Part shown: positions 23,076 to 45,984 of the stretch, one piece after another
How positions within the stretch are numbered: position 1 is the first letter of the stretch
How the letters are laid out: each line of letters opens with the position of its first letter
Translations under genes and position numbers: made by a program
The notes under the pieces: generated by a model
The model's input: only the letters and a program-made list of their open reading frames with translations
What the model was told of the DNA's origin: nothing
Databases searched by the model: none
Assembly: GCA_039545335.1 (NCBI GenBank)
Contig: BCIN01000001.1
Location: forward strand, 1,224,604-1,288,603
Source of the DNA: Kondoa subrosea
Taxonomy: Eukaryota
DNA length: 64,000 bases
Direction: 5' to 3'

Positions 23076-23482
23076 GTCGCTTCGATACGTAGCAGCTGAA
23101 TGTGCAGCACGCAAACTAGCAAATCAGATGCGAAAAGGAATGTCCAGTATCGTCGTTCGAAGCAAAATAACTGCGGCCAAAGAAGATCGAAGAAGGGCAG
23201 TGGTGACAAGCACTTTTTGGCCCATGTAAAGCCCGTAATTTGCAGAGCTTATCATAATGCTCCTAGATTGTAAGCTTGAGGCAGTTCTCGCACATGATGA
23301 CCAATATTTGGTTGTCAGTGTCATTTCTGCGAATTAGAAGTAATTAATGTGGAATGAATGCGAGACATGTAGTCGAGAAAGGAGAGTATATCCATCGTTC
23401 GCTGTCGCAACTGACTGTACAGACTGTTGCAAGATAAGCTATATTTTGCTTTTCTTCTCGTAACGACTTTTTCGAGGCAAAG

Positions 23483-26400
23483 ATGCCTGATACCAGTCCT
23501 GAGGGGCAGAACGATACCGGCCCATACAGGGACTCGATGGAATATTCCCATGCAGAATTGGCTGCAGAAAACGAAGATTACTTTCCAGGTGAAGATACAA
23601 CCAATCTTCCACCTTCCCTGGTTGCAAGCGAGGGAAGCGATGAATCTGAGCCCGAGTTGACTATCTATGATGATCCTCAAGGATCCATGTTCAGCGGCGA
23701 GATTGGTGCTTCTATGCCGACTTCAGTGTCAAACTATGCGCATAGGAACAGGTCTACAAAAGAATTGACAAGACTGTCTGGTGAATATGATGCTGCAACT
23801 AGAAGTAGAAGGAGATCAAGTGCAGGTGATCGCAAAAGTATCAGCTCAAAGAAATCTCGTCGACCTAAAATCAAGCGGGGTACTTCCGCTCTGTCAAATC
23901 CTGTGGAATCAGAATCCGAAGATGAGGAAGTCGCTTCTCGGAAAGCCAGAGTCTTTTCTGGCATATCTTCAATGCTTCGCTCTTCGTCATACAAAGGCAA
24001 ACAAAAGCAGGAAGAGGACGAAACCTCTTTGGCACCTTCCAGACGATCATCTATGCACTCTGTCAGATCTTCAGCTGCCAAACTTCGTGGTCGAAGTCAA
24101 TCAGTCGTTTCAATGGCTACTTCCAACCATTCTGGTTCCGGTTCAGAAGACGACGAAGATGATGCTTATGGACCTTACGGATCTTCTGTATCCACTTCTT
24201 CTACAATGACGACCGATTCTCAAGCTTCTTCGAGCGATGAAAGACGGAGACCATCTATTCCTGGCGGTCTCTTCATCACTCATGGCTTTGTTGGAGGGGG
24301 AGATGCATTCTTTGGTGATCATAGAGTCGATATCGAGTCGCCTACGCAGTCAGAAATAGACGAAGGACGTCTCACAGGTGAAGATGGGAAAGTTTTCGAT
24401 TCGCTGGGTGGATCAGTCACTGGTGAAAGACAGCCTATATATATCCCAGATGAAGATCTGCAGCTTGTCTTTGTTGGGTGGGGAGAAAAGACTTGGAAAA
24501 CTGTTGCTTGGTATTTGGGTTGTTTGTTCACCGTCGGGATACTGCCTCTGCTCGGTCGTTGGTTTCCAGATCTGTGGTTGAGAGGTAAAGGGAAGGTCAG
24601 AGAATTCAGCAGAGCAAGTTCTGTGGTGGCACATGTGCGTTAGAAGGTTTTTTCCTATTCATCTATGCCTGATGTTTACCGGTGCCAGACACAACATGGT
24701 GATAAACACGTTTTACGGATATCTACACTGAAATTTGATCAACCAGTCAGTTCAACCACTGTCTTCCCAGCTACATCTCGGCGACCGCCCAGAAACCGTG
24801 AAGATCCTGTTCCAACACCAATGCCTACTGTCCCTTCTACTCGTAATCAATCGGCTGCTTCTTCTCTGCGAAATTCACCTCGTTCAACTATGCTCACTGA
24901 AGTTAGAATGCTTGATTATCGTTACTATCGCTTGCTTTTACACCCTGAGTCTGGCCTGTGGAGAATGGCAAGAGATTGGGCAGACGTGTCTTGGATTTCA
25001 ATAGCTAACTTGAGAAGAGGGATTACTTCAGCGGAACATGGCGAGCGTTTGCATTTGTTTGGCAAAAACGCTATTCAGATTCAAGCCAAAACTATCTGGG
25101 AACTACTGGTCGACGAGGTAAGTAGATCTTAGCAGCTACAGTATGGTAAAGGTCATGCCGCTCTATAGTGCTTGCATCCCTTTTGTTGGTTGGCGTCTCT
25201 TCTGAGGTGTACACTGACCAATTGATGTTGTAGATTGCTTCCAAATCGCTTCGATCGTACTATGGACACTAGATGACTATCAGCTATATGCTGGTACTAT
25301 TGCTATTATCAGTATAATTAGTATAGTCACCACTCTGGTCGAAACAAGAGCAGTAAGTGCAATTTGAGCTCTTCCTGGACGACGTTTCTGATTTATGACA
25401 GAATACCAAACGAATGATAGAAATGTCGAAATTCGTGTGTGAGGTCAGCGTGCAGCGAGACGGTGTTTGTAAGGGCTTCGGTTCTCGTTAGCATGTTGAC
25501 ATATGCTGAAACGATCTATTACAGGGAGCCTCAGACCAAGCGAAGATCTCGTTCCAGGCGATGTGATTGATCTAGCTCATCAAGATCTCACTACCTTTCC
25601 CGCTGATGTTGTTCTTTTGTCTGGTGATGCGATCGTGAACGAATCGATGCTCACCGGAGAATCTGTACCTGTCAGCAAAGCGCCAATTGAACCCGAAGCT
25701 ATTCCATCCCTGCTGAATGCTGGAGGCGAAATCACACCTGTTCTGTCCAAACATGTTCTGTTCAATGGCACGAAGATCGTTCGGATCAGACAGACATCTG
25801 GTCTCGGTGGAGCTCAAGAAGCTGTGGGAATGGTTCTTCGAACTGGATTCAACACCACGAAAGGGTTAGCATGCATATGAAAAGTTTTTGCTTGTCACTG
25901 ACTGCTTCTTTTAGTGCTTTGGTCCGAAGTATGCTGTTTCCAAGACCATTAGGGTGAGCATCCATACTTGTTGATCTATTTCACACCTAATCTTGTGATT
26001 TGCCAGCTTCAAATTCGTCAGTCTTAGCTCCAGATAATCGCAGCTTTAGCTAAAATAAGTGGTAATTCAGTATCGCGATTCGTGAGTCTTCCAAGCCTGC
26101 TCAGAAGCCAGATCTCAAGGGTTCTGGCAGTTTCCGCTTCATTGGCGTCTTAGCTGGTATCGCTGGTGTCGGATTTTTGGGCAGCGTTTACAACTTCATT
26201 CAGATAGGGGTGAGCCAGACTAGCTTTGTTGCTGTCCTGATCTGAACTGCCGTTGCAAGATAAGTGCAGGTACAATTATAAAGGTCAGCAGTCTCGCCAA
26301 TGCTTCATATAATAGCCTCATCTCTACATACAGCGCGCTCTCGATCTCATCACAATCACATGTCCACCTGCTCTTCCTGCAACAATGAGTATCGGAACCT

Positions 26401-29092
26401 CCTTCGCTATTTCTAGACTTCGCAAGGCATCTATTTTTTGTATATCGCCTAATCGAGTCAACGTTGGCGGTAAACTAAATATATGGGTGTTTGACAAGAC
26501 GGGAACACTGACTGAAGAAGGTCTTGATGTTTTGGGCATCAGAAGTGTGGATCGAATCAATAAGGAGTTCTCTGATTTATATACCGATGTGGAAGATGTG
26601 CCGATCATTGGTGCTGCTGATGCGAAAACACCTTTACTGCATGCTCTGGCCACCTGTCATGCATTGAAGCTGGTTGATGGCGAACTCATTGGTGATCCGC
26701 TCGATCTGAAGATGTTCGAATTCACAAAATGGAATCTAGAAGAGGGTAAGGAAGGTACAAGTCGACCCAGTGGCGAGGCCAGAAGATCGACTGATCAACC
26801 TCCACGAAAGTCGACTGACGAACGAATACCCGATCGACCTGCAACGCTGGTTCAGACCGTTGTCAGACCGCCCGATGGCCAGAGTTTCAAGGTCGAAGAT
26901 GCGCTCAAGACTGGTGGAAAGGTGGTCAACATGACGAAGCAGTCAGAATCGTGCTGAAATCTTCTTACAGCATGCACATTTCCTTGAACTGGGCGTCATC
27001 CGTACTTTTGACTTCGTATCATCACTTAGACGCATGTCGGTGATGGTCAAGAAACTCAAATCCAAGAGTGTTGAGGTCTACGTTAAGGGCGCACCAGAAG
27101 TCATGACTGATATTTGCGACAAAGGAACATGTGGGTCTCCTGCAAAGTCCAGGTTTTTCCACTTACTGAGATAGACTCATAGTACCGAGCGACTATGAAG
27201 AACTTTTAGCATCGTACACAAGGCACGGCTTCCGTGTAATAGCTGTTGCAGCCAAAAGTGTACCTGGTTTGAGCTGGATCAAGGCTCAACGCATGAAGAG
27301 GTCGGTTCCATGTGACTTCCTCAGCGAGTGTACTGACGTCTTCTATAGAGAGGAAGCTGAATCAAATCTTCGCTTTCTTGGTCTCATTGTATTCGAAAAC
27401 AAATTGAAGCCAGGAACTGCGTCTGTCATTCACACTCTCAAGCATGCCAGAATTGGCACACGGATGTGTACCGGTGATAATATTCGGACTGCTGTCTCTG
27501 TTGCACGAGAATGCGGCATGGTACCAGAAAGCTCAAGAGTCTATATTCCTTCTTTCATTGTTGGCGATCAAATGACAGCCAAATCGCAACTTGAATGGAC
27601 AGATGTCGAGGATGATAGCTATAAGCTGGATTCATATGGTCTAATGGTTCGTGTTCCTCTATGCCAAGCTCAGTTGTCTAATATGCATCGCAGCCTGTTT
27701 TGCCAGACGCGGATGATAGCGATGACGAGAGTGTCTTCAGCTCTGACGAGCCCGAATGGTCACTGGCTGTTAGCGGCGACGCTTTCAGATGGATTATCGA
27801 TTACGCTCCTTTAGAAACTCTTCAACGCGTTCGTACTTTCGCTTGTCGGCTTACCTCTGTTGTTGAACGGCCACAATAGATGCTTGTCAAGGGCTCCATC
27901 TTCGCTCGAATGTCACCTGATGAAAAGCACGAACTTGTCGATCGATTACAATCTTTAGGCTACACTGTCGGCTTCTGTGGCGACGGAGCTAATGATTGTG
28001 GTGCACTGAAAGCCGCCGATGTTGGCCTCTCACTGTCTGAAGCTGAAGCATCTGTCGCTGCACCTTTCACAAGTCGTTCACCTGATATCTCTTGCACCCT
28101 CGATGTGGTCCGAGAAGGTCGTGCTGCGCTCGTCACCAGTTTCAGTTGTTTCAAATATATGTAGGTGCTGATTGGTGGCTTGTGACAAGGGCTCAATGTT
28201 TTTTCAGGGCTCTTTATTCCCTCATACAATTCACTACTGTTACCCTTTTGTATTCCATTGCATCATCTCTCGGTGATTTCCAGGTGAGATTTACTTAATC
28301 TTATCAAGAGTTATGCCTTACACTATCTTATAGTTTTTGTACATTGATTTGTTCATCATATTACCCATCGCGGTGACCAGTACGTGCCTGTCTAATTCAA
28401 GAAGGATAGTGAATCTCACAGCTCCATGTAGTGGGTCGTACCGCTCCGTTCCCGAAGATCAATCCCAAGCGACCGACAGCCAACCTGGTATCGAAGCAAG
28501 TCCTTTGTTCGCTCGGAGGTCAAGTCATTATTACTTCTGGTCTGCAACTTCTCGTCTACTTCTACGTTCGGTCACAAGATTGGTATAGACCACCTCATAT
28601 CGATCCACTCAAGCTACGAATCAAGAATGACGAGAACTCTGCCCTATTCTTAATCTCCTCCTTTCAATATATCTTGGTCGCAGCTGTTTTCTGTGTTGGT
28701 CCGCCCTACAGAAAACCTCTCTATACCAATTCGCTTCTACTCCTGACTCTTTCAGCACTTGGGCTGTTTTCGTTCTACACTCTCTTTGTCACCTCCGGAC
28801 CGATTTACAAACTTCTTCAATTAGTCAAGCTTCCAAGAGAATTCCATCTTGAATTGACGCTGTTAGTGATATTGAACTGTGTAATGAGTTGGGCATGGGA
28901 GAAACACGGCGCAGCTCCTTGGTAAGTTTGCTTACTCAATCTCCGCCGAACGCGAAAAGCTAATTTGTTTATGACAGCGCGAAATGGTTCGGTAGGCAGA
29001 TACGGCGCTACAGGCGATGGAAAGGAAGCAGGCCGTCTAGCAGAGCGCACGAGGGCAAAAAGTACAAGACGATTAGCGAAGCAATGGAATAA
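23483..29092 (+). CDS. YPK9: P5B-type cation/polyamine-transporting ATPase (Ypk9/ATP13A2)
   Basis: [25 protein letters not shown]5B-type [38 protein letters not shown] and [13 protein letters not shown]. About 18 introns. Confidence 0.95.
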
Positions 29093-33720: not shown

Positions 33721-36700
33721 ATGGCAGCAGTGACTGAGATTGAGGCCGACGTCAGCGAAACGCCTAATCTCACGCTCCGCCAACCTCAGCAAGGTGTCAA
33801 ACTGCGTCTGTCGAGCTCACAGCTGTCCCCGGATGCTCTGCCTGCTAGTGCCAATCTGTTGAGCATCTCAAACACCTTTGGTTGGCTGGCAGCTGCAGTC
33901 ATTCAAGCAGATGGTTCCCATGCTTTTGTGCTGTCTTCTCTGGAAGCTGTTCGCTCGACATTCGCAAACGCTGAACGAAATTCGGATGTCACTTTACAAC
34001 CTACTCGCACAATCTCTACTGCTGCTAAGATTCTCTTCTTGCAATTCGCTTTCGCGGACAAAGTTATTCTGGCATTGTTGGAGAATAATCAACTGGCAGT
34101 GTATAGGCTAAAGGCGCTGGTAGATGGATCTTCAGTCCGTATCTCTGCCGTATCACCTTTTTGTTGTCTGATTCGTGCGAGAAGCTATCGCCAATTCATG
34201 TCTTCCCTCTCAATGCATCGACTGTAGATCTACTTCCAAATCCAGCTGACCGACCTGAATTAGTCGCGCTTTTGACAAGCAATGGTCAGATTACTCTTCT
34301 CAATCTGGATACCAAGTCGGAAACAGGCACTTTTGGTCAATCACTTACTTCAGGTGAGCCAGATCTATCTTTCTGCTAGGGCCAGATCTGATAGAGCAAA
34401 TAGCATGCTGGTCGGTGAAAGGAAAACAAATCGTCTGTGGTACTTCAGCAGGTCAACTTCTTCAGATTTCCCCCGAAGGTCAAGAGAAAGCTTCAATTCC
34501 TATACCTCCAGCCTTGGCTTCCGAAGCGCATTCAGTCATTGATATACGCTGGCTCGAAAACGACGTCTTTCTGGCTACTTACTCTCCAACGACTCCGACT
34601 GGCATTCCAGATACTCCAATCTACACCATTACCCGCACCAAGACTTCGCTTGAATATGCTCGTTTCGTTGATGATCCTGCTGCTGCTATGGGCTCATTAG
34701 AAGAGCGACCACCAAGACGATTCACAGCGGCAGTAAAGAATTGGCAACCTTTCAAGCATCTAGTCTTTTCTGCCAATAGTGCATGTTCGCAAATAGCAGT
34801 TCTAGGAGCTCAAGCTTCCTCTTCTTGGGCTACATTGGATCTAGATGATGCTTCAAGACCTTCACTTCCTTTCTCCAGCGATGATAGCGACACATGTCCC
34901 TTTGGTCTTGCACTGGATTTTACGGCCTCGGCTGGAATTCAAGTCTCTGCTGATCCTGATTCTCCTTTACCTCCTGCTCCGTTACTGTACGCGTATAATA
35001 GCGATGGTATTCTGCTTACGTGGATGGTGCAAAATTCAACAGAAGGTTTTCCAGCTTACCGAACACCTCGTAATGTTTTGACGCAAGAAGAAGCTTCAGC
35101 TGAATCACAAGCTGCTCCGATCCAATCTCAAGCTGCTACTGCTTCTTCTCCTGCAGCGAAACCTTCCCCTTTTGGTGCTACCTCAATTCCAGCTTTTGGC
35201 GCGTCTACCTTTGGTTCCTCTACTTTTGGCTCTTCCAGCACGGCATCAGCCTTCGGCGCTCCTGCTTTCGGATCTAAAGCCGTTCCTGCTTTCGGCACTT
35301 CGACAGCAAGCGCAACCCCAAGCGCTTTCGGTGGATTTGCAACAAACAATACAACGACTGCTTTTGGTTCCAAACCTGCTTTCGGCTCCTCCGCTTTCGG
35401 TTCATCTTCTTTTGGTTCCAAACCAGCTTCTACAACGCAACCTATAGCGGCAAGTGGAAGTGCATTTGGTTCGTTTGCAAGTAAATCAACTGGATTTGGA
35501 TCTTCTGCTTCTGGTTCTTCTTCACCTTTCGGAGCAGCAGCAACCAATAATTCTAAGTCAAGCGGGTTTGGTGCTTTTGGTGCTTCAACTACACCGAATA
35601 CTTCTTTCTCAAGCAACGCGTTTAAAAGTACTGCTGGTCGAGGAGAAAGTGGGTTAGATGAAGATGAGGATGAAAAGAAACCTGCTCGATCTGCACCTGG
35701 ACTGGATGATGCTGATATTGATGAATTGGAACCGGAATCTAAAGGAGATGGATCAGCGAGTTTGGGTTTTACTGGATTTGGGTTAGGCAGTTCAACAACA
35801 CCAACTTCAACTCCTTCGAAACCTCCTACTTCAACTTTTGGAGCTCCTTCCGTTGGGTTTGGCGCATTTGCTAAGCCTGCAAATACTCCTTCCATGGGTT
35901 TTGGATTTGGTTCATCGGCTGCGCCCCAATCAACTAATTCAGCCGCTGTTTCTGCCTTTGGTCAGAAACCGGCTTCAACTGGATCCGCTTTTGGTAGTGC
36001 TACACCCACGTCTTTCGGCAGTACCCAATCTAAAACAGCATCACCCTTTTCTTTCAAACCTCAAGAACCTGCTTCGTCTGTGGACAGTAAAGCAAAGAAT
36101 CCAGAGGTAGTCAGTACACCACTAAGCTTCTCTTTCTCTCAATCTGCAGCAGCTCCTTCAGCATTCTCCTTTACTAAACCTGCAACAAGTTCTACATCTG
36201 CTACGAGTTCTACACCTGCTCCTTCTGCTTTTTCCTTTGCAAAGCCTCAAGACTCTACAACACCTGCTGAAACGTCTTCGGCTAAATCTGTCGAAAAGCC
36301 AGCAGATCCCTCGTCGACTGTACCTGCTGCTTTCTCTTTCGCCAAACCAGCGGAAAGATCGGCTAGCGGAAGTACAGTACCCTCCGCTTTCTCTTTCGCA
36401 AAGCCTGGTAATGCATCCACTACATCATCAGCTTTCTCTTTCGGCAAACCAACAGAAACTCCTAAAGCTCAAACCGCCGACCAACCGTCTGCCTCTTCTG
36501 CATTTTCCTTCACAAAACCTGCAGCAGCTACTTCTACATTCTCTTTTGCTGCTAAACCTGCTGAGACTATCAAATCCGCTCCGCTCGTTGCAGATTCAGA
36601 AGAGAAGAAATCCACTATTCCAGATGCTTCTTTACCTTCTACTTCGAGCTCGCCTTTTGCTGGCTTCGGATCAAAGATGAACTTTGGTGCAGTAGGCGAT

Positions 36701-39363
36701 AAGTCTCCGAAAAATACAGAGGATCAGAGACCTCCACTTCTGAAATCACCTTTTGGCGGAACGTTCAGCTTCGAGCAGAAATCGGGCGAGAAGAAAGAAG
36801 ACTCTGTCACAGAAAAGGCCAAGTCCGCAGAAGGGAAGAAAGACAAGCCTGCCGATAACAAAGCAGAGCAGAAGACGCCAGAGCAAATCTCATCGGAATC
36901 AGGAAAATCTCGAACCAAATCGTTGATGGGTTTCTCTAGCAGTCCTCCCCCTGGTCGTGCTTTGTTTCTATCTGAACAACAAGAAGAGGGCGCAGATCAA
37001 TCGCAATCTGGTAGCAGTGAAGCTTCGGAGCAGCATGCTGAATTGCAAGAAGTCAGCAGCGAAGGTGAAGAGGAGCTCGAACAGGCAAGTCCAGATGAAG
37101 GATCTGGTGAGGAATACGGTGAGGAAGAGGAAGAGCAGCAGGAAGGTGACGAGACAATTGCGCAAGAGAGCGATGCTTCAGAAGAAGTCGAAGAAGAAAA
37201 TGAAGTTTCGCAAGATCCCTCAGCATCTGCAGAGAATGAATCGACCGAACCAGCAGCATCTCATGAGGATGTCAAGCAAAAACCTGAAGCACCAGCATCG
37301 GGACCTGCTGCGATAAACCCAACCTTTTCCTTCTTGCCTTCGAACAATACTCCGGTCTCGGTTTCTCAGGCCACGAAATCGCCTTTTTCTTTCGCTTCGT
37401 CTGCATCTTCTGCCACACCTTCCCAAAGTGCTTCGTCACCATTCGCGGCCTTCAAACCAACGGGACCGTCCAGCTTTGATTCAGGTTCCGGTATAGCAGC
37501 TGCGGACGCCAACAAGCCCAAACCTTCTCCTTTCTCATTCGCAGCTCCGCAACCCAGCAGCGCCACTCAACCCTCTTCTTCCAAGTCATCATTCTCCTTT
37601 GCTGGAGCGACGGCTGCGGCACCTCCCGCATCAGCTTCTTCCGACTCAAGGTCAACCACACCAACCCCCACTTCAGCAGTAAAGACTATGGCTGCCAAGA
37701 TCAATCAGCTCTCCTCGCCTGAAGATTCAATACCAGTGCCTGCTCCGGCTGCCCTGCCAAAAGCGTCTCCCTTCGGCTTCAAGGCGCCTCTATCTTTTTT
37801 TCAGCCTGCTGAACCATTAAGAACCGCTAGCACATCGAACATGAAGCCAGCGGTAGGAAAACAGCAGCCCGAAGCGCCCAAAGAGTCACAGAAACCTGCA
37901 CCATCTTCGCTGAGCAATGTCTCTGTGCCACGACTAGCGTCGCCAGACGTCAAGCCAGAAGCAGGCGAAGAAGGAATGGGCGGCGAATTTCTCAAAGTCT
38001 ATCGAATAATGGAAGCAGAACTGCGCCTAGTAGGTCATGCTACAGAATCTTCCGTAATAAACTTACATTCCCTTTGACAGTTGCACCAAAATACTCAACT
38101 TTGCACCGATTTCATTTCGCGTTTCAGACGACCGCTCCAGCCTGTCGAGGATTTCCCCGTATCTCTGAAAGAAGAGGAGTGGTCATTCGGCGATCTTCCT
38201 CAGCTCGCCAAAGTCTGCAATGCGCTGAAAGAGGATATTACCAAAATCAGCGAATCTAGCAACAAGCAGAATCGCAGAGCGGTAGAATTGCGGGACCTGG
38301 TATTGAAAAGTCAGCTGCTTGTAGCTACTTGAGTGCTCAGACTGACCTATGAGTAACAGGTGATCTGAAGCGAGAAGAGGCAGCTCGCTTCATTCGAGCC
38401 AAATCAGATCCAGAATTCCGCAAGATGCTCAAAGTGCGACAGCTTGGTCCGGAACAAGTGGAGAATCAGAAGACATTGCGACAGAGTAGTCAGGTATTTC
38501 ATTCTCCACAAGAGTGTGATAATTGCTGATACAACATTTCAGCGCGTATACGAGTCCTTGACACAGCTAGAAGAGCAAGTAGCTGTATTGAAAGCCAAGC
38601 TAGACGAAAGGAAGTCTGGCCGTAATGCATTGAAGTGAGTCGCGCGGTTTCTATAGTGTCAGCACTGCTGAGCACGATGCTTAGAACACCTCATTTGGAA
38701 TCGATTACTCGGACAATACATAACATCTCGTCAAGCTTGAGGCAGCGTATCAGCGAATTGGATCGTATGATTCTGGACTTGGAAATGAATCAGCTGAAGA
38801 GTGGCAAACTTTCCAAGTCGCCCTCTAAACCGAAGTCCAGATCCAATACCGACACGGGCGCTGCGGACAATCAGACGACTCCAGAAAAAATTGTCTCTGG
38901 TCCTTCGGCTGAAGTTGCTAGCATTGTCGCTGCAGCTCTCAATACCGAACGAGCAGGAAAGCTACTGAAGTCAACTCTGCTACAAATGCGACCCAAGCCT
39001 CAATTTACCAAGGTTTCGAGCGAATCTCCTTCCAACGAATTTGCCGATCTCCGTTCCGCTTTCGCCAGAGCTCCGATAACAAGTGATAAGCTACCGACGC
39101 CTCGTCGAACCGCTCCCTCTCGTGATGCAACTCCAATGCGACCAACTTTCTTTTCTCTCGATCATGAAGACGACGAAGATCCCGCCTCGCCTTCTCGTCC
39201 TTCATCTAGACCTCAACCGACAGCCAATAGAGGCAGACCGAGCCAGACTTTCAAGGGAGTCTCCCTCTCGTTGGCAGGAGATGAAAGTAGCTCCGAAGAG
39301 GAAGGGAGCGAAGAGGAATATGATACCCTGCAGGATATTGAAGAAGGTTCAGAAGAAGGATAG
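33721..39363 (+). CDS. NUP159: Nucleoporin Nup159/Nup146 (NUP214): beta-propeller, FG repeats, coiled coil
   Basis: N-terminal propeller (ACWSVKGKQIVCG, IRWLENDVF, PPAPLLYAYNSDGIL), SAFG/xFG and AFSF repeats, and C-terminal coiled coil with LKVRQLGPEQVENQKTLR. Confidence 0.88.
35160..37640 (+). repeat. Coding FG / FSF nucleoporin repeats
   Basis: Many (S/P)AFG(S) units at ~35160-36020, then (S/A)FSF(A/T)KP units at ~36040-36560 and ~37320-37610. Confidence 0.85.
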
Positions 39364-42761: not shown

Positions 42762-45700
42762 TCATTTGCTCCAAGAGAGAGACTATATCGAGTTCATGAG
42801 GTTTCATCACATACGGAAGAAGAAGACTAACAAGAGGAAGCTTTCTTGAAGAGTTTCCAACATGGAAGACATACTCTCCATCACTGACTCTCCACAATTG
42901 CCTGGTCACATCCCAGACTGACAGATCCTTTCTCCTCAATGGGAAGCTGACGGTCTGACTTTGGCCAGCTGGAAGTCGTTTGACCTTTCCGAAACCACGT
43001 AATTGACGGGGTCTATCCAAAGCGATACAAGACATCAGTCGAAGTTCAGGTACAGTAGGTATCAACTTACGGCTCATTCTCTTTAGCAGGGTATTGGACG
43101 TAAAGTTGAGCGACTTCGCAAGCTGTCACATCTCCAGTGTTCTTGACATCGACGGTGACCGTAGCGATGATATCGTAGAGCGAATTGCCTTCTTCGTAAT
43201 CTTCATACGGTTCAGCAGTCTTTTGATAAGCTGCATCATCGGCCTTATACGTCTGATCTAATTTGAGATTTGACATTTCGAACTGTTCAGCAGATCAGTT
43301 AGCAAGAAACCGAAAGGTCATTACATTGACAAACAGTCGAATAACTCAAACCATGACCAAACTCATATCTCGGTGTGATGTTCTTGGAGTCAAACCATCT
43401 GCAAGAGTATCGTGAGATCCACAACAAAGCGAAGATGAAATACTCACCTGTAATCGATGTTCAAAGATTCTGTAAAGTCGGATTGAGGAGCGTAAACGGG
43501 ATCGGTAACGATTGAATTGGGGATATAGTCGTCGACAGATTTGCCAATAGTGAATGGGAGCTTGCCAGAGGGTGAAACGTCGCCATATAGGACTGGGACG
43601 AGAGCATTACCAGACTGTTCGCCTGGAAGAAGGGGTGCCAAGATAGCCGTAACGTTCTTGGAATCAGCGAAAGCTTCAAGATCAGCTGTGCTTGGAATAT
43701 GAAGAATGACGACAACATTGTCCGAAGCTTCTGCTGCAGCCACAATAAGTGATTCGGCGTTTAGCTTGAGATCCAGACGATCTTGTCCTTCCTGAGTGTA
43801 GAAGTTTGCGAAAACCAACACCACATCAGACTGTCGACGAATTCAGAAGTTAAGCAGTCAAGGTGTAATGCATACCAATTTACCTCGGCAGAAAGTTGTC
43901 GAGCATATGCAAGATCGGTATCGTTCAAAGAGTAGCGAACAGTGGTGCCATCTTGCTGAGCACGTCGGGAAATAGCGGCAAGAGGGGTTATGACATTGTG
44001 AGGGAATGAGAAACCAGATCCTGCGCCAAGAGTGACAGTCCCATTATCCGAACCATAAGGGCAGGCATCGCCGAAAGCTCCGCATGCGTCTTGACTGTGT
44101 TGACCTGGGCCCGCATCCGATCCAAGGATAGCAATTCGCTTAGGGGATTTCAGTGGTAAACCGCCTTCGTTCTTCAACAAGATAGCAGAATCTTCACCGA
44201 TACGTTGTAATAATTCCAAGGTCGACGGCTGTTGTACGTTGCGGTAGGTTGTGTTGCCAGCAGCCCCAACAGCGTCAAAGGGAACTGAGGGGAGAGGATT
44301 TTCAGGCTGATTTGAGGCATAATAAGGTGTCAACAATCTTGTGACAGCATCATTGAGTCTTGACTCTTTCACCGTGCCGTTGTTGACCAAGGAGACCAAT
44401 TCCGGGCCCCAGAACGTGCCCAAAGCTCCTGAGTACCCAAAACCTGGCATTTCAATGTCTAGGCCTCCCTCGATAGATTCTTGAGTAGCCCAAGTACCAC
44501 CCCAATGTGAAGACAGCAGAGTAAGCCGAGTAACTTTTGAAAGGAGCTATGAAACTTATCAGAGACAATGCCACCTTGGAAGTTAAGCTCAGTTTTCAAC
44601 AGGCCATTGTTGGTAAACTGATTGTGACAGCTGTGCGTTCTGTTGATCTCGTCTGACGAAGGCTATCAGTGCCACTCTGAAACAATATGCAGTAACTTAC
44701 TGTATGAACACATGACGTATGATGTTCCAGCTCGAACCTGCACATCGTTTAAGTGAGGTCTAGTCCTCGCGGTAAAATCAACGCACAGCATCAGCGAAAG
44801 TCCAAAGGTAGAGCTCATGGGTAGCTTTATCGTCCACATTTGAGGAAATCGGCAGCTGTTCTGATGCAGGGAAAACCGAATAAGAAGCAGTCTGACCGTA
44901 CAGGTTACGGAAAGCTGGGGACTCTATGGTCAGATCACTTTTCCAGATGTCTTTATGTTACGTACTTTCTCTGAAAGCAAAGCAAGCATATTTAGCCTTA
45001 GTGATTCGAGCAGGTGCAATAGCTCACTGTTCATAAGCCATATAATGCCTGCCAGACTGAAATGAGCTCATTTTTCACAGACATGAGGTATAGATGTACT
45101 TGACAGTAGGTAGCACGCCCGCATCTAAGATACCACGGATAGCATGGTATCCGCTGATGCCTGAGCCATACGGATCAGCATGGAAGTTTTCGTACGAGCG
45201 TCCATCCAAAGGAGATCGCCCGTAAGGACCACCGCTGACTGGAGCGAGCGCAACGTTCACACCCTGTGCTCTGAACTCTTTCCCCATGGCCAAAGCTGAT
45301 TGATAGATGAGTTCGACATCCCAAGTAGCAGCGAGAGTGGTCTGTGGTCAGATAAAATGTAACACTCAGAAATTGTCCTTGCCGTCCATACTGAACCTAC
45401 TTCTGCTGCGAATTGGGTCTGTCCATAGGAAGGACGGATTCCTGCTGGTCCATCTGCTCAATCTAATTAGCCAGTAGCCAGAACACCAACTTGGCCACAA
45501 ACCTTGGAGACACAATGCTGTAGGACTTCTCAGCAGCTGATCATCACAGCTCTCGACGTCAACTTACCTGGCACACCCAGACGTTCCACAGCACCAGTAT
45601 TGCCGGCGCATCTGCCTGTTAACACTGTTTAGCAACGACATTCATCTGGACAGCGAGCATACCAATTTGACCAGTAACGACCGAAACCTTTTCTTCGACA

Positions 45701-45984
45701 GTCATTTGTTGGACTAAGCCTGTGACTTTCTCGTGAGCAGACTTCCACAGTATGCCACCATCAGCGACGGCTTAATAGAAGCAAATTTCAGCGTAATGCA
45801 AAAGTGTAAGAAATCTGGGGTAAAACTGACGAGTTGAGATATTTTGCGATGCATTGATGAGCTGAGAACCATTGTTGTATTGTCTTGCAATGATTGAAGC
45901 TCTATCCACTAGATTGATCTCGGTAGGGAATGCTAAAGCCGAAGCTACGAAAAGAGCAAGCTGGATTCTTGCGCTCGTCAACAT
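42762..45984 (-). CDS. Secreted glycoside hydrolase family 3 beta-glucosidase with Fn3-like C-terminus
   Basis: Signal peptide, LCLQDGPAGIR, GRSPLDGRSYENF, KHYMAYEQE, MCSYN, LKTELNFQGGIVSDWG (nucleophile motif, needs an AT-AC intron), SPSGKLPFTI, EFGHGLSY and RQLRGFGKV. Confidence 0.93.

Follow-up and report, generated by a model that had tools for sequence, protein, structure and literature searches.

A probable U2-type AT-AC intron within the SDW motif of a GH3 gene of Kondoa subrosea

The DNA analysed here, referred to throughout as the window, is a 64,000-nucleotide stretch of the Kondoa subrosea genome. On its minus strand, a 53-nt segment with AT at its 5' end and AC at its 3' end divides the Asp codon of the SDW motif in a GH3 gene. 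Taken together, the splice signals, spliced alignments, relatives' cDNAs and pattern of codon substitution make it quite probable that this segment is a genuine U2-type AT-AC (type II) intron, carried by a functional, secreted-type GH3 gene of a Pucciniomycotina basidiomycete.

The GH3 gene and the segment that divides its SDW motif

The features of the gene that bear on the segment are listed below.

42762..45984, minus strand: GH3 beta-glucosidase/xylosidase gene of 17 exons, 16 introns and 795 codons (spliced alignments, Pfam, relatives)
45503..45517, minus strand: microexon of 15 nt, (A)LCLQ (spliced alignments)
44966..44970, minus strand: microexon of 5 nt, AGAAA, between GT-AG introns 45027..44971 and 44965..44915 (GT-AG-favouring aligner)
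44560..44652, minus strand: exon 11, 93 nt, ending in ...NFQGGIVS and the G of the Asp codon (spliced alignments)
44507..44559, minus strand: predicted phase-1 AT-AC intron that interrupts the Asp codon (G|AT) of SDW (sequence, spliced alignments, relatives' cDNAs)
43884..44506, minus strand: exon 12, 623 nt, beginning with the AT of the Asp codon followed by WGGTWATQESIEGGLDIEMPG (spliced alignments, PF01915)

The coding sequence runs from an ATG at 45984 to a stop codon at 42764-42762, a span of 3.2 kb, and its 16 introns are 47-60 nt long, a range that includes the 53 nt of the AT-AC segment. Both the N-terminal and the C-terminal GH3 domains are present: in a Pfam search of the window exons, PF00933 matches exon 45102-45341 (E 4e-10) and PF01915 matches exons 43884-44504 (E 6e-9) and 43450-43830 (E 8e-27). 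The SDW motif, the Asp of which we take to be the GH3 nucleophile, is present only once the 53 nt are removed; it then aligns, by way of the relative's protein P0002, with the GGVVSDWGG of PDB entry 7EY1. The entries 7EY1 and 6JBS, named beta-D-xylosidase/beta-D-glucosidase by their depositors, match P0002 over 778 residues (E 1e-243) and have the stretch KTELNFQGGVxSDWGG in common with it. The likeness passes through P0002, which is 89% identical to the window gene over exon 12, and the activity of the window enzyme is a predicted one. Neither a stop codon nor a frameshift was found in the 795 spliced codons.

The segment extends from 44559 (A) to 44507 (C) of the minus strand, its length being 3 x 17 + 2 nt, and the layout of the site is ...GGT GGC ATT GTC TCT G | ATAAGTTTCATAGCTCCTTTCAAAAGTTACTCGGCTTACTCTGCTGTCTTCAC | AT TGG GGT GGT ACT TGG. 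Its 5' end reads ATAAGT and its 3' end TTCAC. Without the 53 nt, the predicted junction becomes GTCTCTG|ATTGGGGT and the motif GGIVSDWGG is restored. If they are retained, the frame shifts and a stop codon is reached at 44461-44459 (ORF 44459..44662). Because the first two bases of the intron recur directly 3' of it, the segment can be written in three registers, AT-AC, TA-CA and AA-AT, all of which yield one identical mRNA.

The alternatives available to the splicing machinery near the site were enumerated by listing all GT-AG, GC-AG and AT-AC pairs that leave the product in frame and free of stop codons (n=66). A collinear GGIVSDWGGTW is obtained from only one of the 66 pairs, the AT-AC pair 44559..44507; among those listed, every GT-AG or GC-AG alternative entails the loss or replacement of conserved residues. 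An earlier, sequence-only reading of this DNA had proposed an AT...AC-bounded segment of 53 nt whose removal restores SDW, a frameshift upon retention, and the lack of any SDW-preserving GT-AG pair. The minus strand and the spliced alignments agree on the first of these, and the stop codon and the enumeration bear out the other two.

Spliced alignment was performed with a protein-to-DNA aligner written without any splice-site preference, the reference being P0002 (795 aa), which derives from a relative's transcript. The gene recovered in this way starts at the ATG at 45984 and has 795 codons, and the aligner excised exactly the 53-nt segment from it. Its 15 gaps comprise 11 with GT-AG among their equivalent registers, one AT-AC and three odd ones. 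In a second run, in which GT-AG was given a 16-point bonus, the gene has 16 introns, namely 15 GT-AG introns and the AT-AC intron, which was retained as non-canonical despite the penalty. The three odd gaps are accounted for in this run by the pair of introns that flanks a microexon, by a GT-AG intron with unchanged protein, and by GT-AG 42831..42783. The 5-nt microexon is required for the frame and completes the conserved EQET, the window reading EQETFRN and the relatives EQETYRN; if an aligner has no model for it, a spurious non-canonical intron of 108 nt results at this place. The last intron of the gene is ambiguous: GT-AG 42831..42783 (minus strand) gives a C-terminus, ...KLPLSLSWSK, that resembles those of the relatives, and read-through of 42783-42831 (minus strand) is also open, giving a different tail with about 40 extra residues.

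Relatives provide a separate view of the segment. The nearest database proteins, P0001-P0003, show 80-89% identity to the window over exon 12 (89% for P0001 and P0002) and are encoded on contigs that measure about 2.4-2.5 kb and consist almost wholly of coding sequence. A metagenome scan returned 80 loci, among which only L001-L004 are close; these four, all cDNA-like, are the contigs of P0001-P0003 and a fourth, more distant one, and the remaining loci (L005-L080, at most 36% identity) were left unused. The four contigs come from other species (70-87% nucleotide identity to the window in exons), are collinear with it exon by exon and contain no introns. Each of the four shows a single 53-column gap precisely between the G and the A[T/C]TGGGG, and all encode SDWG. 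The 53 nt are therefore noncoding, since the cDNAs lack them, the cDNAs themselves being silent on the relatives' genomic DNA at this position. This exact absence, together with a length within 47-60 nt, agrees with the earlier claim that the segment is an intron. One frameshift each, relative to the protein alignment, was observed in L003 (near 146-179) and L004 (near 1109-1112), and these are probably assembly errors. A search with short proteins gave six matches, of which one, P0135 (49% identity), is a homologue from genomic DNA with an ORF that spans SDW and has no intron there; the other five begin downstream.

The termini might in principle reflect sequencing errors or a minor allele, for example in a heterozygote, where the true or major sequence would be GT...AG. 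Two Logan read assemblies (word depth 142 and 53) were compared with window positions 44200-44900, and they show no differences over 701 nt. Both are runs of one sample, possibly the source of the window itself, and their contigs omit minor variants, so that the agreement excludes an assembly slip without amounting to independent biological replication. The single sample and the loss of rare variants leave some room for such an error or allele, against which stand the complete agreement of two separate runs and the great improbability of two independent errors, 51 nt apart, that happen to yield a known compensatory pair; we regard this explanation as very improbable. The AT...AC termini are thus those of the genomic DNA in both read assemblies, and GT...AG occurs in neither.

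Splice signals and the class of the intron

The short introns of the GH3 gene and of a neighbouring gene served as the standard for the donor site. The following two features are used here.

about 23480-29090, plus strand: gene for a P5-type cation ATPase, in which at least 17 introns are short and of GT-AG type
44521..44525, minus strand: branch-like motif CTTAC; the A is 44522, at -16 relative to the 3' end of the AT-AC intron (motif scan)

A donor matrix was built from 32 GT-AG introns shorter than 90 nt (15 from the GH3 gene and 17 from the ATPase gene), and donors were scored over positions -3 to +8 with +1 and +2 omitted. The ATPase introns were taken from the GT-AG-favouring run; the unbiased run, for which the reference was 50-70% identical, gave imprecise boundaries. 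The 32 introns of the two genes range from 47 to 60 nt, with a median of 50.5. The donor context of the AT-AC intron, CTG|ATAAGTTT, scores 7.1 bits and ranks second among the 35 modelled introns. The two strands of the window together contain 8629 AT dinucleotides, and among these the donor at 44559 is the sole AT site that reaches 7.0 bits; that this single site falls exactly on the boundary required by homology goes beyond chance. Position -3 of the donor is C, the base also present there in 21 of the 32 GT-AG introns.

This CTTAC may act as the branch site of the AT-AC intron. Two GT-AG introns of the ATPase gene, 27131..27182 (at -18) and 28284..28333 (at -14), likewise have CTTAC, and no other branch-like motif, close to their 3' ends; it is a relaxed match that deviates from CTRAY. 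The sequence-only reading had described donor and branch alike as U2-like. For the donor this description is confirmed by ATAAGT and its rank; for the branch it is upheld in part, through the motif common to two GT-AG introns, and weakened by the relaxed match.

Introns of the U12 type have a donor consensus of [AG]TATCCTT, with the core ATATCC, and a branch motif, TCCTTAAC, whose distance from the intron's 3' end is about 10-20 nt. The donor of the 53-nt segment departs from this core at three positions, and no U12 branch motif was found near its 3' end. The only approach to one is TCCTT at 44545-44541, which is similar to the first bases of the U12 branch consensus and is followed by TCAAAA (to 44535) in place of AAC, its A's lying 29-32 nt from the 3' end and hence too distant. 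With U12-type AT-AC introns the segment therefore shares only its terminal dinucleotides, the donor core and branch motif being different. Removal by the minor spliceosome, for which these termini and the TCCTT might be adduced, is opposed by both motifs and also by the host, a basidiomycete: a survey that took in more than 3000 genomes, in the portion drawn on here, reports Ascomycota and Basidiomycota to be without convincing minor introns and to have lost most minor snRNAs (PMC10639083). A U12-type intron appears extremely unlikely on these grounds. An Rfam scan of the 64-kb window at gathering thresholds gave no matches, which says little about the snRNA content of the genome.

The placement of the host comes from the ATPase gene. 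The best named matches of an ATPase fragment are Pseudohyphozyma (74%), Phenoliferia and Rhodotorula (both 73%) and Mixia (71%), all Pucciniomycotina genera, and its matches in Agaricomycotina and Ustilaginomycotina are lower. The earlier statement that most Dikarya lack the minor spliceosome is in keeping with a host position in Pucciniomycotina and, as far as the consulted portion of PMC10639083 extends, with the lack of convincing minor introns there.

According to the sections of Sheth et al. (2006, PMC1557818) on which we rely, a type II intron is distinguished by a good U2 donor except at position +1. The segment combines AT/AC ends with a donor that is U2-type except at +1 and with no U12 motifs, as in type II introns.

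Removal of the intron and its consequences for the enzyme

Whether the frame downstream of the segment has been maintained in the lineage of the window was assessed from a codon alignment of its spliced coding sequence with L001, L002 and L003; L004 was omitted, and residues 1-56 of L003 were masked because of its frameshift. Downstream of the intron, pairwise pN is 0.075-0.133 and pS 0.68-0.77, the synonymous sites being saturated. Changes specific to the window were counted where L001, L002 and L003 have identical codons; a loss of splicing that occurred very recently would go unnoticed in this test. In the 493 codons downstream there are 24 synonymous changes, 1 non-synonymous and 1 multiple, and upstream of the intron the corresponding numbers are 8, 0 and 3. 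For the expressed relatives, the downstream counts of synonymous/non-synonymous/multiple changes are 24/2/2 (L001), 37/4/1 (L002) and 30/6/13 (L003). The 24 synonymous changes against 1 non-synonymous indicate purifying selection, within the lineage of the window, on a frame which needs the removal of 3n+2 nt. Accurate removal of the intron in that lineage is thus probable.

These counts bear on a different account, in which the intron is never or rarely removed and the gene is a pseudogene or an inactive allele, with a product that ends soon after the Asp. Such an account can draw on the non-canonical termini, on a case for excision that is built from the DNA of the window and the cDNAs of relatives, and on the "less efficiently" spliced A1/C-1 combination of test systems, as worded in the consulted part of PMC1557818. 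It would have to be reconciled with 493 intact downstream codons whose changes resemble those of expressed relatives, with a lesion-free reading frame, and with two matched terminal bases, A(+1) and C(-1), beside an otherwise near-perfect donor, a combination unlike a product of decay. We therefore consider loss of splicing unlikely, if somewhat less so than the other alternatives.

For a spliced type II intron, the course of removal can be proposed as follows. The donor would be recognised by the major spliceosome through its otherwise perfect consensus, CTG|ATAAGT (compare GTAAGT), and the A of the branch site would precede the 3' end by about 16 nt. The second step would then proceed with A(+1)/C(-1) in place of the usual G/G terminal pair, for which these two bases could substitute. 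Exact excision would bring G and AT together and so complete the Asp codon in SDW, the nucleophile motif. Removal of this A...C-ended intron by the major spliceosome is, on the present comparison of signals, the most likely route; excision in Kondoa subrosea, its efficiency and the spliceosome that acts are matters that we infer.

The sequence-only reading had further suggested that the divided codon "gates" the activity of the enzyme, a suggestion for which the analysis gave no support. Whichever of the 16 introns were retained, the protein would be inactive, so that the location in the nucleophile codon is incidental, and nothing was found that indicates regulation. The related proposal of a regulatory switch, in which weak termini cause conditional retention and thereby control enzyme output, has in its favour nothing but this position and the lower efficiency of A1/C-1 reported in the consulted sections of PMC1557818. 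Against it, the donor context ranks with the best of the window and thereby speaks for efficient recognition; given also the equivalence of all 16 introns, such a switch is highly unlikely. An elaborated form, in which the lineage keeps an old, conserved and inefficiently spliced type II intron whose retention would tune the enzyme according to the carbon source, seems just as improbable. Less likely still would be that the lineage retains minor-spliceosome components unknown in Dikarya.

Comparison with known AT-AC introns and other observations in the window

Type II introns are few in the genomes for which the consulted part of Sheth et al. (2006, PMC1557818) gives counts, the human genome having 15, that of the mouse 6 and that of the fly 3. 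Those of human SCN4A and SCN5A and of human and fly TAF2, described in the same source, are, like the segment in the window, bounded by AT...AC, equipped with a good U2-type donor, free of U12 motifs and very rare. For SCN4A and SCN5A, splicing dependent on the U2 snRNP is reported there to have been shown experimentally, whereas the window intron is a 53-nt basidiomycete intron whose U2 assignment comes from signals in the DNA. Also summarised in those sections are mutants in which a change of the first base from G to A is rescued, less efficiently, by a change of the last base from G to C, in yeast as well as in human. The window intron has the same terminal pair as these mutants; they are engineered and of reduced efficiency, whereas the intron is natural and its gene is under purifying selection. 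Type II introns had earlier been proposed in fungal xylanase genes, as is noted there.

Among fungi, the sources drawn on, as far as they were available, provide several records of AT-AC junctions. In Ganoderma lingzhi, 13 tabulated splice sites (0.014%) are AT-AC, one of which was confirmed by PCR and Sanger sequencing (PMC11590231). In Trichoderma longibrachiatum, AT-AC is found at 69 of 14305 junctions (PMC4324775), and in Fusarium graminearum it is among the non-canonical pairs listed (PMC3577648). Compared with plants and with animals, fungi have far fewer AT-AC introns, according to the portion of Frey and Pucker (2020) on which we draw. Like the window intron, these cases are rare and occur in groups without minor introns, and disregard of AT-AC breaks a protein domain in gene predictions. 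They differ in lineage and in the genes concerned, and their donors are not classed as U2-like in the parts consulted, whereas the intron of the window is known from DNA. Since fungal AT-AC introns are already documented, at roughly 0.01-0.5% of junctions in these partial records, the present intron raises no new question and implies no new mechanism. It is a natural example from a little-studied subphylum, and it fits the compensatory rule for first and last bases known from yeast genetics.

For annotation the case is of more practical value. Gene predictors that accept only GT-AG and GC-AG would leave the GH3 gene broken or truncated at its catalytic motif, and the occurrence of an AT-AC intron and a 5-nt microexon in one gene makes it a useful test case for the annotation of intron-dense basidiomycete genomes.

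A screen of the window for AT[AG]AGT..YAC segments that join open reading frames gave five candidates, compared with 0-4 for control patterns, and is thus non-specific; it misses 44507..44559 because the upstream exon comprises merely 31 codons. In the ATPase gene, one of 19 gaps, 24373..24429, has CA-AG ends; it lies in a poorly conserved region and was rejected as probably an alignment gap. A 100-nt gap in the same gene, 26234..26333, is doubtful, its donor scoring -6.7 bits, and may hide a microexon or represent a lineage-specific deletion. Farther along the plus strand, a long open frame at 34358-38077 is rich in FG/SAFG repeats and resembles an FG nucleoporin; the long antisense open frame at 35128-35961 is probably a by-product of this repeat composition.
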